Source of the DNA: Trichonephila clavipes
Taxonomy: Eukaryota
Reading direction: 5' to 3'
Length of the DNA: 64,000 nt
Assembly (NCBI GenBank): GCA_019973935.1
Contig: BMAU01016994.1
Span: 880,762 to 944,761, forward strand
Position numbers and translations under genes: made by a program
Shown here: piece after piece, positions 36,576 through 43,206 of the stretch
Layout of the letters: every line of letters begins with the position of its first letter
Position numbering within the stretch: position 1 is the first letter of the stretch
The notes under the pieces: generated by a model
The model's database searches: none
What the model was told of the DNA's origin: nothing
What the model saw: only the letters and a program-made list of their open reading frames with translations

Positions 36576-37305
36576 TTGCTGCGTTTTCGGGGGTTCGAAA
36601 TGATTGAAGCCGAAGAGCGGGATCCAAAACAATTTTATTCTTTGCCAAAACAGTCCTCCACAAATTGTAGAACAGGTCGAGAAAGTCACGTACAATCGAT
36701 GAAAATACTGATAACACAGATGCAATACACTAACAAAAACAATAGTAAACACTCAGCACAAAAATAATAACTCAATAAAAGCAATAACACACGCACTATG
36801 CAATCGTCTCTCTCAAGCAGAGAGGTATCACTTGCATGAAAGCTGAGATCTGACTAACTGACTAGCCGGCCCGGGCCCTTTTATACCTTTCGGTCAGAAA
36901 CCTCTTGCACTTGCCAGAATAATCTAGAAATAGAAAGGTCTAGAAAAATCCGGAGCGTACGAGAAAAGCTCAATACATAGTGTTACAATACCGCGATAGG
37001 GTTGCCAGACAGGGTTATTAGGAGCAGGGTTGCCATGGTCGCCAAGCTTATCGCCCACATTTGGCGACATATCGCCAAATTTGGCGCTAAAAATTAAGTC
37101 GCCAAATCCGTCGCCAACTTGGCGCTAGCTGCAATATTTGGCGAGTTTACCATTTAAACCAATGTTAAAGCATGGGGGCCGTGCAATGCAGTGGAAATGA
37201 TATTACAGGTAAACAGGGTTAAAATCACATTAGATACGACAAATTAAACTGTAAAAATGAACACAAATGAGTAGAAACAATTAGAATAAGACTAAATTCG
37301 TAACA
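36576..37305 (-). repeat. 3' LTR of the gypsy element
   Basis: See 5' LTR. Differences: tgctgc/tgttgc at the first bases, one CT unit in (CT)n near 36815, and gcta/gcca at 37088. Confidence 0.9.
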
Positions 37306-37319
37306 TTGCCCCCTCTCAA
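37306..37319 (-). other. Polypurine tract (GAGAGGGGGCAA) immediately upstream of the 3' LTR
   Basis: The reverse complement of 37306-37319 is cttgagagggggcaa, abutting the LTR TG. Confidence 0.5.
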
Positions 37320-37588
37320 GAACTGCACGTCCCGGGCAGTACAACCCTTCATCAGACGTTAACATAATAATAAAGCAATTGATTAAAAACAATTAAATGA
37401 ATATGCAATAATAAACATGTAATACATAGTACAAAATAAACACCTAATGCATAGTACAAAATAAACACGTAATGCATAGTAGAAAATAAACACTTACAAA
37501 ACAATATACAAAATTATTTACAAGATTATTTACACACTAACTTATTTATACAAGACCATGGTCAAAATAAATTACACGATAATTGACA

Positions 37589-38827
37589 CTAAGAATTATG
37601 GCCATAATATGGAGCAAGCCTGTCGTAATGAACGACTCTAGGCTTCGAATTCGTTGACTTACGGATCCGGATTACGACGTCGTTTATTATCTTTAAAATT
37701 GTATAAGGACCGTCCCAATGCGATTGTAGCTTAGGAGAAAGTCCTTTGCGTCGAGTCGGGTTGTAGAACCACACCTTGTCACCTTCCTTGAATTGATGTC
37801 CTGTGGCTTTTGTGTCATACCGAGTCTTCATCTTCTCCGTCCTCAGGTTGATCCGTTCTCGAGCCAAATGGTGTACATCTTCAAAACGTGCCTGGAGATT
37901 CTGCACGTACTCCTCAGGCGATGAAGGTGTATCCGGAGGGCGACCAAACAGCAGGTCACAAGGGAGACGAAGATCTCGGCCAAAAAGCATCTGGGATGGT
38001 ACATATCCGGTAGTCTCGTGAACGGCGCTGCGGTACGCTAGCAGAAAGAGAGGAACTTTCTGGTCCCAGTCTTGTTGGTTCTTGGAGACCATCAGTGAGA
38101 GGTTATTCAGGATGGTACGATTAAACCTCTCCACCATGCCATCTGACTGTGGGTGCAAAGGTGTGGTCTTGGTCTTGTCAATTCCGAGTAGTTCACAGAC
38201 CCCCTTCAATACCGCAGAGACGAAATTTCTTCCCTGATCGGAATGAAGTTGAAGAGGTACCCCATATCTCGATATCCAGTGCTGCACTACAGCCTCCGCT
38301 ACGGTGGGGGCTTCCTGATCCGGAATGGGGTACACTTCGGGCCATTTCGTGAAGTAGTCCATGACAACAAGTAGGTACTTATTACCAGACGCAGTCCTTG
38401 GCAGAGGTCCCTGGATATCGAAAGCGATACGTTCGAAGGGTGCTCCAACATTGTAGCGATGCAGCTTCCCTCGGCTACGTATCTTTGGCCCCTTCCGAGC
38501 TGAACAGGCATCACAGGACTTGCACCACTGTTCCACGTCAGCTCTCACTTTACCCCAGAAGAATCGCTCTCGAACTCGGTGCAAAGTTTTCATGACACCG
38601 AAATGACCTCCTGTTGGGCTGCCATGCAATTCTTTGAGTACCTCTGGGATACGATATCGAGGAAGTACTAATTGCCACCTGAATGTCTTTCCATCCTCTG
38701 ATTCGAATTTTCGGTATAGAACACCCTTCCTGAGATGTAGAGAATTCCAGAGGGCCCAATACTGCTTAGTTGTAGGACTATAAGCCGAGATGTCCTGCCA
38801 ACTTGGTTTATTGCTGGAAGACTCCAT
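37589..38827 (-). CDS. pol segment: integrase (DDE core plus chromodomain-like C-terminus)
   Basis: HGSPTGGHFGVMKTLHRVRERFFWGKVRADVEQWCKSCDACSARKG...IAFDIQGPLPRTASGNKYLLVVMDYFTKWPEVYPIPDQEA...LHSDQGRNFVSAV...TPLHPQSDGMVERFNRTI... (D,D35E). Confidence 0.85.
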   Translation of the reverse strand: MESSSNKPSWQDISAYSPTTKQYWALWNSLHLRKGVLYRKFESEDGKTFRWQLVLPRYRIPEVLKELHGSPTGGHFGVMKTLHRVRERFFWGKVRADVEQWCKSCDACSARKGPKIRSRGKLHRYNVGAPFERIAFDIQGPLPRTASGNKYLLVVMDYFTKWPEVYPIPDQEAPTVAEAVVQHWISRYGVPLQLHSDQGRNFVSAVLKGVCELLGIDKTKTTPLHPQSDGMVERFNRTILNNLSLMVSKNQQDWDQKVPLFLLAYRSAVHETTGYVPSQMLFGRDLRLPCDLLFGRPPDTPSSPEEYVQNLQARFEDVHHLARERINLRTEKMKTRYDTKATGHQFKEGDKVWFYNPTRRKGLSPKLQSHWDGPYTILKIINDVVIRIRKSTNSKPRVVHYDRLAPYYGHNS

Positions 38828-38832
38828 AAACT

Positions 38833-39264
38833 CTATAAGGGTTTAATATCAGGATCCGCCATCTGGTCTTCTCGAACTTTCTCGTCACTCCAGGGATCGG
38901 GTGGCGTCGCTGTTGAAGTTGTTATCTGGCGTATAGCATAGTCATATTTGGTCTCTACTCTGGAACAATGACGACAATTTTCTGGGCATGGTCTTCTTGA
39001 AAGGGCATCAGCATTTCCATGCGAGGAGCCTTTACGATGTCTGATGTCAAAGTAATACTCGTTGAGCCGTTGTATCCATCTGGCTACCTGGCCTTCAGTA
39101 TTTCTAAAATTCATTAGCCAGGTTAAAGAGGCATGATCGGTACGTAGAAGAAATTTTTGGCCATAGAGATAGTGATGGAAATGCTCGATGGCTTTCACAA
39201 TAGCCAGTAGCTCTTTTCGAGTGACACAATAATTTCTTTCCGGTTTCGATAAACACTTACTCAA
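38833..39264 (-). CDS. pol segment: RNase H C-terminal part and integrase zinc-finger (HHCC) region
   Basis: SKPERNYCVTRKELLAIVKAIEHFHHYLYGQKFLLRTDHASLTWLMNF... Confidence 0.75.
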   Translation of the reverse strand: MSKCLSKPERNYCVTRKELLAIVKAIEHFHHYLYGQKFLLRTDHASLTWLMNFRNTEGQVARWIQRLNEYYFDIRHRKGSSHGNADALSRRPCPENCRHCSRVETKYDYAIRQITTSTATPPDPWSDEKVREDQMADPDIKPL

Positions 39265-41976: not shown

Positions 41977-42014
41977 TTTCTCTAGGTCACTCCTGAACGA
42001 GATGGAAACTTCTT

Positions 42015-42452
42015 CTACCTTTCGAAAATTTTCGCCTCTAGTTTGCTCTCCATATCTTCGAATTTATTTTCAACCGACTCGATTCTTCCTTCCATTTCTT
42101 CAAATTTCTTGTCCACAGTCGTCAATTTGTCGCCAATGCCCTTCAAATCACTTTTCAACTCTTCCTTGTTCGCGGTCAGTTTGTTATTCAACTCGTCCAT
42201 ATTGGCGCTGATCTGCTCGTTTACGTTAGTAAGCTTGGTATTCACTTCTGCGATACTGGCGGTCAAGTCCGATTTCATTCCGCCCATATTGGCATTCATG
42301 CTGGCGGTCAACTCCGATTTCATTTCGCCCATGTTGGCATTCATGCTGGCGGTCAAGTCCGATTTCATTTCGCCCATATTGGCATTCATGCTGGCGGTCA
42401 ATTTTTCTAGAAGAGTCTGGAACTGGGCCTCCATCGCTCTTGTTGTTGGCAT
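42015..42452 (-). CDS. ORF0: 145-aa coiled-coil protein with 16-aa tandem repeats, between the PBS and gag
   Basis: MPTTRAMEAQFQTLLEKLTASMNANMGEMKSDL then (TASMNANMGEMKSxL)x3, then an Asn/Glu/Lys-rich heptad-like C-terminus. It lies in a different frame (-1) from gag and overlaps the gag start by 40 nt. Confidence 0.5.
   Translation of the reverse strand: MPTTRAMEAQFQTLLEKLTASMNANMGEMKSDLTASMNANMGEMKSELTASMNANMGGMKSDLTASIAEVNTKLTNVNEQISANMDELNNKLTANKEELKSDLKGIGDKLTTVDKKFEEMEGRIESVENKFEDMESKLEAKIFER
42241..42420. repeat. 48-bp tandem repeat (about 3.7 units, about 95% identical) encoding the ORF0 repeats
   Basis: gctggcggtcaa(g/c)tccgatttcatt(t/c)cgcccat(a/g)ttggcattcat repeated head to tail. 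Confidence 0.8.
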
Positions 42453-42454
42453 TC

Positions 42455-42473
42455 AACCCCACTTCTGACACCA
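42455..42473 (-). other. Primer-binding site TGGTGTCAGAAGTGGGGTT, 2 nt downstream of the 5' LTR
   Basis: Complementary to an RNA 3' end ...AACCCCACUUCUGACACCA, which resembles the 3' end of tRNA-Leu (GGGTTCGAATCCCACTTCTGACACCA). Confidence 0.5.
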
Positions 42474-42475
42474 AT

Positions 42476-43206
42476 TGTTGCGTTTTCGGGGGTTCGAAAT
42501 GATTGAAGCCGAAGAGCGGGATCCAAAACAATTTTATTCTTTGCCAAAACAGTCCTCCACAAATTGTAGAACAGGTCGAGAAAGTCACGTACAATCGATG
42601 AAAATACTGATAACACAGATGCAATACACTAACAAAAACAATAGTAAACACTCAGCACAAAAATAATAACTCAATAAAAGCAATAACACACGCACTATGC
42701 AATCGTCTCTCTCTCAAGCAGAGAGGTATCACTTGCATGAAAGCTGAGATCTGACTAACTGACTAGCCGGCCCGGGCCCTTTTATACCTTTCGGTCAGAA
42801 ACCTCTTGCACTTGCCAGAATAATCTAGAAATAGAAAGGTCTAGAAAAATCCGGAGCGTACGAGAAAAGCTCAATACATAGTGTTACAATACCGCGATAG
42901 GGTTGCCAGACAGGGTTATTAGGAGCAGGGTTGCCATGGTCGCCAAGCTTATCGCCCACATTTGGCGACATATCGCCAAATTTGGCGCCAAAAATTAAGT
43001 CGCCAAATCCGTCGCCAACTTGGCGCTAGCTGCAATATTTGGCGAGTTTACCATTTAAACCAATGTTAAAGCATGGGGGCCGTGCAATGCAGTGGAAATG
43101 ATATTACAGGTAAACAGGGTTAAAATCACATTAGATACGACAAATTAAACTGTAAAAATGAACACAAATGAGTAGAAACAATTAGAATAAGACTAAATTC
43201 GAAACA
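42476..43206 (-). repeat. 5' LTR of the gypsy element
   Basis: Identical over about 727/731 bp to 36576-37305. Carries TATAAAA (reverse complement of 42780-42786) and AATAAA (reverse complement of about 42533) in element orientation. Confidence 0.9.

Follow-up and report, generated by a model that had tools for sequence, protein, structure and literature searches.

The 64,000 nucleotides of Trichonephila clavipes DNA analyzed here (contig BMAU01016994.1 of assembly GCA_019973935.1, positions 880,762 to 944,761 of the forward strand; hereafter the window, with coordinates counted from its first letter) carry on the minus strand, at 36577-43206, a 6.6-kb Ty3/gypsy long terminal repeat (LTR) retrotransposon. 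The element is a full-length, recently inserted copy of an abundant T. clavipes Ty3/gypsy family. As assembled, its reading frame has five -1 breaks; after five one-base repairs, it is open for 1622 codons. Based on the evidence described below, we propose that the oddities of this element, that is, a pol split into pieces and an apparent additional open reading frame (ORF) that the initial annotation of this DNA called ORF0, are most likely the combined result of assembly quality and a misread N-terminal domain of Gag. The features of the element, from its 5' to its 3' end, are as follows.

43207-43210, minus strand: upstream copy of the target site duplication (TSD) ATAT; the flank reads ...AATAT, then TGTT
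42476-43206, minus strand: 5' LTR, 731 nt, TGTT...AACA, with TATA-like GTATAAAAGG at 42787-42778 and AATAAA at 42538-42533
42458-42473, minus strand: primer-binding site (PBS) TGGTGTCAGAAGTGGG, starting 2 nt past the 5' LTR
37589-42452, minus strand: coding region of Gag-Pol; the assembled sequence has six open frames here, each shifted by -1 from the one before
42018-42452 (42015 with the stop), minus strand: "ORF0," the predicted helical N terminus of Gag, with 145 aa in the assembled sequence
42256-42401, minus strand: 45-bp (15-aa) tandem repeat, 3.2 copies, unit TASMNANMGEMKS(D/E)L (Tandem Repeats Finder [TRF] score 271, 95% matches)
41166-41175, minus strand: relic gag/pol frameshift site GGAAAAC+TAA; the +1 frame reads ...SAFQKEMSEN-stop
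37410-37534, minus strand: 3' untranslated region, in which a 25-bp x3.4 tandem array adjoins a 12-bp x3.4 array, after the Gag-Pol stop and ahead of the polypurine tract
37309-37317, minus strand: polypurine tract (PPT) GAGAGGGGG, 3 nt from the 3' LTR
36577-37305, minus strand: 3' LTR, 729 nt
36573-36576, minus strand: downstream copy of the TSD ATAT; the flank reads ...GCA, then ATATAT

The initial annotation had recognized a young gypsy LTR element with LTRs of about 730 bp and about 4 differences between them, and this description holds. The LTRs are direct repeats of 729 and 731 nt that are 99.6% identical (3 substitutions plus one 2-bp indel in a (GA)n run), they have TG..CA termini (starting TGTT and ending (A/G)CA), and the 4-bp TSD is present on both sides. 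The PBS, PPT, TATA, and AATAAA that it had listed as intact could all be located, with the TATA-like GTATAAAAGG and AATAAA found in each LTR. The PBS is identical over 16 of 16 nt to the start of a mouse tRNA-Leu(CAA) isolation probe, which begins with TGG, the complement of the tRNA 3' CCA end (PMC7997516). We posit that reverse transcription would be primed from this tRNA-Leu(CAA)-type PBS and that translation would start at the ATG right after it. The Pfam matches in the window follow the order zf-CCHC, half of an aspartic protease (Asp_protease_2), RVT_1, RT_RNaseH(_2), Integrase_H2C2, rve, and Integrase_p58_C; this order of protease (PR), reverse transcriptase (RT), RNase H (RH), and integrase (IN), with the integrase after RT, is of the gypsy type. 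Gag has a CCHC knuckle, CWTCGREGHLQRSC (zf-CCHC at 20.0 bits against a cut-off of 20.8), and its capsid (CA) region gives a weak, sub-threshold match to PNMA (E=0.005). Among 15 aligned sequences, made up of the window gag and 14 relatives, PNMA was matched by 10, Retrotrans_gag by 4, and zf-CCHC by 14; the capsid matches in the relatives are to Retrotrans_gag, PNMA, and Ty3_capsid. No further copies or solo LTRs were found elsewhere in the 64-kb window.

As a description of the assembled sequence, the multiply split pol of the initial annotation is also correct: there are six successive open frames including ORF0, with breaks where it had placed them. What it overlooked is that all five breaks shift the frame in the same -1 direction and that each is a matter of a single base. 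Measured from stop to stop, the open frames are as follows.

42452-42018, minus strand: ORF0
42063-40894, minus strand: gag
41047-39830, minus strand: PR-RT
39920-39264, minus strand: RT
39321-38836, minus strand: RNase H
38842-37592, minus strand: IN

Reading both frames over each overlap located the point at which sense passes from one frame to the next.

42020-42022, minus strand: break 1, ORF0/gag, TTCGAAAGG; A3 here, A4 implied by other copies, giving FEKVEE
40913-40920, minus strand: break 2, inside the protease, ACGGGGAAAAG; G4A4 here, G5A4 or G4A5 implied, giving TVTG(E/K)KIDI
39912-39916, minus strand: break 3, inside RT, GAGAAAAACAGC; A5 here, A6 implied by intact copies, giving EDREKTAF
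39259, minus strand: break 4, RT/RNase H, TATTGAGT; TTGAG here, TTGGAG implied, giving VAYWSK
38832-38837, minus strand: break 5, RNase H/IN, CCCTTATAG; CCCTTA here, CCCCTTA or CCCTTAA implied, giving KPLIEF

A single missing base moves the frame by -1, as is the case at all five transitions, and each break is one base short in a short run (A3, G4A4, A5, G1, and C3/A1). Adding one base per break yields a 1622-codon ORF without an internal stop, beginning with the ATG at 42452 and ending with the stop at 37589-37591, in which the motifs DTGA (residue 478), YLDD (892), TDAS (1040), and GPY (1583), the CCHC knuckle, the zinc-binding domain of the integrase, and its DDE core are all retained. Peptides of the continuous frame that span junctions include AKIFEKVEEVSISF, TVTGEKIDIHG, and EDREKTAFTSG. 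The product would be a single polyprotein of ~1622 aa, consisting of an N-terminal helix of ~150 residues followed by capsid, CCHC knuckle, protease, RT, RNase H, and integrase.

Do other members of the family read in the way that this repair predicts? Other copies were compared as protein gene models rather than as DNA. With ORF0 as the query, 78 proteins were retrieved, all from T. clavipes (TNCV_ locus tags); with the repaired polyprotein, more than 120 T. clavipes gene models (the longest 1539 aa) were found, together with a protein of Stegodyphus mimosarum (P0143; 1688 aa, 66% identity). The T. clavipes model P0079 is continuous over all five junctions, exactly as repaired, and the Stegodyphus protein is continuous, residue for residue, over the four gag-pol junctions and has an N-terminal repeat helix of its own in frame. 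The initial annotation had reasoned that copies in which ORF0 runs on into gag and pol is intact would imply errors or private mutations in the window copy, and P0079 is such a copy. Another relative, 63% identical, is the Logan contig L001 from a short-read Illumina run (SRR34318877), in which the same architecture of Gag, with the helical domain in frame, recurs in a sequence free of nanopore data. The T. clavipes copies are close to one another; 71 aligned gene models differ on average by ~1.7%, and the window copy, which belongs to a subfamily marked by NKRL as opposed to NSAS, has ~6-9 private amino acid changes in 1622 residues, no nonsense codon, and five 1-nt frameshifting deletions.

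The same comparison bears on the public annotation of this species. More than 100 annotated TNCV_ "genes" (models P0001-P0198) are copies of this retrotransposon; many use invented introns to pass over frameshifts, or close with out-of-frame tails that recur between models (NWRRTSRGFLTWRFLTVRLK, FAGNTAAGFRRSR, ELRFERNV), and T. clavipes copies have been automatically annotated as "Retrovirus-related Pol polyprotein from transposon 412."

Could the cell itself decode some of the breaks, by slippage on the A-run in RT or by programmed -1 frameshifting from ORF0 into gag? In favor of this, the shifts are all in the -1 direction, and each open frame overlaps the next; at break 3, a P-site slip on GAA AAA C would yield the correct EKTAF, and L001 does have a -1 site, G_GGA_AAC TAA, between gag and pol. 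However, when the five junctions were scanned for slippery sites, none had a canonical X_XXY_YYZ heptamer in the upstream frame, and the frame offset at the breaks is not conserved, given that P0079 (five of five junctions) and the Stegodyphus homologue (four of four gag-pol junctions) are continuous at these sites. Moreover, two of the breaks fall inside the Pfam matches to the protease and RT and a third splits the match to RNase H. We therefore regard biological decoding of the breaks as highly improbable.

The sole recognizable frameshift signal in the element, at 41175-41166, is bypassed in the window copy. An extra A at 41199-41197, ~30 nt upstream of the relic GGAAAAC-TAA site, already puts gag in the pol frame in the NKRL subfamily. 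In the NSAS subfamily, gag and pol were fused differently, by an extra A inside the site itself, giving SEKLIN. By comparison, the gag of L001 ends in ...REEGN before a stop, on G_GGA_AAC TAA, and its pol (KLNSGHLAGRRLP...IIDTGAN) continues in the -1 frame (L001 1300-1340); its slippery site, GGGAAAC, is the heptamer known from PEG10. The window subfamily would thus need no gag/pol frameshift, a 1-nt insertion having apparently fused the two frames upstream of the relic site. In total, the Gag-Pol of the T. clavipes family is one ORF, and if frameshifting was ever used, it was at the gag/pol boundary and not between ORF0 and gag.

The second oddity, ORF0, is resolved by the same set of gene models. 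The initial annotation correctly placed a 145-aa ORF at 42015-42452 that is helical throughout; AlphaFold2, run with the family alignment, predicts a single uninterrupted helix over residues 2-144 (pLDDT 95), and a hydrophobic periodicity of 3.55-3.65 extends over the whole of ORF0. Its details need revision. The repeat, which it gave as 48 bp, 16 aa, and 3.7 copies, is by TRF a 45-bp, 15-aa unit in 3.2 copies, and the overlap between ORF0 and gag, given as 40 nt, is 46 nt from stop to stop. More importantly, it treated ORF0 as an extra, possibly accessory, protein, or else as an extension of Gag read by frameshifting. In many T. clavipes copies, however, the ORF0 sequence runs in frame into gag (...AKIFEKVEEVSISFRSDLEKLKQKVMTGQG; ...SKLEAKIFEKVEEVSISFRSDLEKLKQKVMTGQGDEFKF...), as is seen in P0001, P0005, P0008, P0012, P0016, P0017, P0023, and P0079, so neither an accessory protein nor a frameshift is called for; the window copy lacks a canonical slippery heptamer at this junction and simply misses one A from an A4 run. 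Because ORF0 is continuous with gag in other copies, these sequences indicate that it is the N-terminal part of Gag and not a separate gene.

Is there still a case for a lineage-specific accessory gene, or for a captured and expanded satellite, upstream of gag? In the window copy, ORF0 is a separate ATG-to-stop ORF, it contains tandem repeats, and it has no Pfam match over the curated cut-offs (the matches to Apolipoprotein, tropomyosin, and filament type families are all sub-threshold). Against this, its stop and frame change are not conserved, ORF0 being in frame with gag in most T. clavipes gene models and in L001, and the N-terminal MPxTRA next to the PBS is kept in L001, where the same PBS is followed by an ATG (MPITRA...) that opens a 427-aa gag with the helical repeat domain in frame with CA and knuckle. 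Analogous N-terminal domains occur in relatives from Argiope, Stegodyphus, and Bacillus rossius. All examined gene models that begin at the ORF0 start codon have the domain, and the repeat number alone varies among them. An accessory gene or satellite is, in our view, scarcely credible. The variation in repeat number that the initial annotation had suggested checking was found between T. clavipes copies: in the alignment of gene models, units of TASMNANMGEMKSxL number about 1-4. Other in-frame variation consists of a duplicated 18-aa unit, EVNTKLTNVNEQISANMG, and a 15-aa insertion, ENKFENKFVDIENKF, in about half of the copies.

With ORF0 identified as part of Gag, what accounts for the missing bases? 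In young repeats, short reads do not map to a unique place, and long-read assemblies polished with them tend to keep run-length errors of one base there. The T. clavipes assembly of Kono et al. was built with Flye 2.7 from Nanopore R9.4.1 reads called with Guppy 3.2.10 and was polished with four rounds of Pilon using 10X reads (bioRxiv 10.1101/2021.04.22.441049). Given a Nanopore/Flye assembly whose short-read polishing is expected to be least reliable in young multi-copy repeats, the deletions are most likely residual consensus errors. The distribution of the breaks among gene models points in the same direction. Break 3 is present in 34 of 65 scorable T. clavipes models (absent in 31), and break 2 is present in at least 11 of 42 (absent in 31); all four combinations of the two states occur. 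In a permutation test against relatedness, neither break carries phylogenetic signal (p=0.59 for break 2 and p=0.35 for break 3), and the positive control, the subfamily marker NKRL versus NSAS, is readily detected (p=0.0002). Such recurrence of pol breaks in other copies without phylogenetic signal is a further reason to favor consensus error, and breaks 2 and 3 as the mark of an inherited defective subfamily were rejected as the main explanation on the basis of this test.

Alternatively, the five deletions may be real, and the element may be a defective, nonautonomous copy that decayed after insertion or was copied from an RNA that was already frameshifted and was packaged in trans by proteins of intact copies. 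The 3 substitutions and one indel between the LTRs indicate that the insertion dates back some time, and the copy has its ~6-9 private amino acid changes. Breaks 2 and 3 are common to many other copies, as expected if defective lineages amplify, and identical frameshifted tails recur in other gene models (e.g., ...NWRRTSRGFLTWRFLTVRLK in several clusters). On the other side, neutral decay would not usually be expected to leave five single-base deletions out of five and no nonsense codon, breaks 2 and 3 vary independently of one another and of how closely the copies are related, and the source assembly is of a type prone to run-length errors in repeats. The ratio of frameshifts to private substitutions in this copy is also several-fold higher than typical animal indel-to-substitution ratios, which likewise counts against real deletions. 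We consider it unlikely, if by no means negligible, that all five are genuine.

Based on these considerations, we think it likely that most or all of the breaks are uncorrected consensus errors and that the actual copy is probably intact or nearly so. Assembly or sequencing error was one of the two alternatives offered by the initial annotation, and with P0079 continuous and the breaks recurring without signal, it is the best-supported one. Several points nevertheless weigh against it. At breaks 4 and 5, the runs are no longer than 1-3 bases and few other copies share the break (the junctions are intact in 68 and 64, respectively, of 71 other models), and these two may be real mutations private to this copy. 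With 3 differing sites between the LTRs, there has been time for ~10 substitutions inside the element and perhaps for 1-2 real indels. If co-packaged RNAs recombined, the phylogenetic signal at breaks 2 and 3 could also have been lost. The comparison rests on protein gene models, in which error and mutation are not directly separable. Finally, a nearby unique, intronless ORF for EMC1 is intact despite containing five runs of at least 6 bases, although this shows that polishing succeeded in unique DNA rather than that it failed at the element. The integrase ORF of the window copy (412 aa, with private substitutions) matches the annotated protein GFV75478.1 exactly; together with an exact match of the EMC1 ORF to GFV75472.1, this places the window in the assembly of Kono et al.

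If the helix belongs to Gag, how widespread is it, and what might it do? An exhaustive search with the gag frame retrieved thousands of relatives. In many of the best of these, the capsid match begins 100-230 residues into the protein, and the sampled relatives have repeat-rich, charged N termini of the EEMKAGQEEMK type; relatives with a comparable N-terminal domain can be named from Argiope bruennichi and from the stick insect Bacillus rossius. Some related Gags place a SAP domain ahead of the helical repeats (P0206, P0254, P0266, and P0300). SAP-bearing Gags of A. bruennichi are annotated as "myosin-J heavy chain-like" or "scaffold attachment factor B1-like." Thus, such a helical N terminus is normal for this gypsy lineage, even if it has been little described. 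The helix, predicted as a monomer, is a probable coiled coil, and its likely role would be in Gag oligomerization, in particle assembly, or as a matrix-like module.

A profile search of the PDB matched the N-terminal part to apolipoproteins A-IV, A-I, and E and the C-terminal part to nucleocapsid knuckles. Homology of the N-terminal part to apolipoproteins was considered and set aside, the PDB and Pfam matches being taken as resemblance in composition or periodicity. We speculate that the helix, with its apolipoprotein-like amphipathic repeats in fast-changing number, may be a lineage-wide module that replaces matrix in an arthropod gypsy group, for example in particle oligomerization or in membrane or lipid binding, or that it may represent the type of metaviral coiled coil from which the N-terminal domains of Arc-type proteins arose; we hold this broader proposal to be a long shot.

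The spider element resembles other arthropod Ty3/gypsy elements (Metaviridae), with which it shares TG..CA LTRs, a 4-bp TSD, PBS, PPT, a capsid region and CCHC knuckle in Gag, the PR-RT-RH-IN order, and an integrase with zinc-binding domain and GPY module; it differs in having gag and pol fused and a long, repeat-variable helix before the capsid. Steamer and SURL, C-clade elements of bivalves and echinoderms, are like it in combining a tRNA-Leu PBS, a single gag-pol ORF, and LTRs of the form TGT...ACA, and the Steamer PBS equals the first 12 nt of the spider PBS (TGGTGTCAGAAG, tRNA-Leu) (PMC8905726). However, the host is a spider, its LTRs measure ~730 nt against ~180, and the likeness is one of features rather than of an RT tree. 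Nor is the single gag-pol ORF lineage-wide, because the 63%-identical L001 has separate gag and pol frames and uses a -1 frameshift between them.

N-terminal coiled coils also occur in other retroelement proteins and in domesticated Gags. The GAG of Cer1, a Ty3/gypsy element of Caenorhabditis elegans, has a long N-terminal coiled coil before the capsid (PMC10309623), but Cer1 also encodes a separate CERV protein with no spider equivalent, variation in repeat number is not described for it, and the likeness drawn here is one of architecture. Arc has an N-terminal coiled coil of ~200 aa whose metaviral origin is unknown (PMC11011659). Arc and the domesticated Gags of the PNMA/PEG10 type share Pfam families PNMA, Retrotrans_gag, and Ty3_capsid with the window element and its relatives; in contrast to these host genes, the spider element is an active-type transposon. 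Because no Arc family is among the Pfam and PDB matches listed for the N-terminal domain, the likeness to Arc is architectural only. ORF1p of LINE-1, a nucleic acid-binding retroelement protein, likewise has an N-terminal coiled coil, and its length in mouse L1 varies by in-frame tandem repeats. It belongs to an unrelated protein family and element class, and the comparison with the spider Gag is one of analogy.

The rest of the window contains the following features.

14095-16827, minus strand: intronless 910-aa EMC1 ORF, head-to-head with the next gene
17469-18140, plus strand: single-ORF NAC/HYPK-UBA (nascent-polypeptide-associated-complex alpha-like) gene
20552-20947, plus strand: ORF with an ISXO2-like DDE transposase domain (PF12762, E=1e-14), with overlapping ORFs on both strands at 20154-20603
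30-32 kb: block with an unusually negative GC skew (-0.25) and 40% GC
32277-32623: 181-bp x1.9 repeat, 79% matches
53874-54037: perfect 89-bp x1.8 tandem duplication

The EMC1 ORF matches GFV75472.1 exactly and has 910-aa orthologues in three other Nephilinae; the copy in an older T. clavipes assembly (PRD24324.1) carries the NCBI flag UNVERIFIED_CONTAM. Single-exon housekeeping genes would seem unusual in a spider. The ORF at 20552-20947 probably represents part of a DNA transposon of the Merlin/IS1595 type. No tRNA genes and no Rfam families were found in the 64-kb window.

What this locus teaches is mostly a caution. When a long-read assembly has been polished with short reads, a young element present in many copies can seem multiply broken or seem to gain upstream ORFs, and apparent damage can hide an intact single-ORF element that carries uncorrected single-base errors. 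The same assembly problem shows itself in the many odd TNCV_ "gag-Pol" models with lengths of 200-250 aa or ~1500 aa, an annotation artifact in the T. clavipes proteome that is worth flagging to its users. Of modest value to specialists are the helical, repeat-variable Gag N terminus, which is found in spider relatives and in a stick insect, and the two different 1-nt fusions that took the place of a GGGAAAC-type frameshift between gag and pol. If the copy described here is truly intact, T. clavipes would be host to a very young, and probably active, gypsy family.

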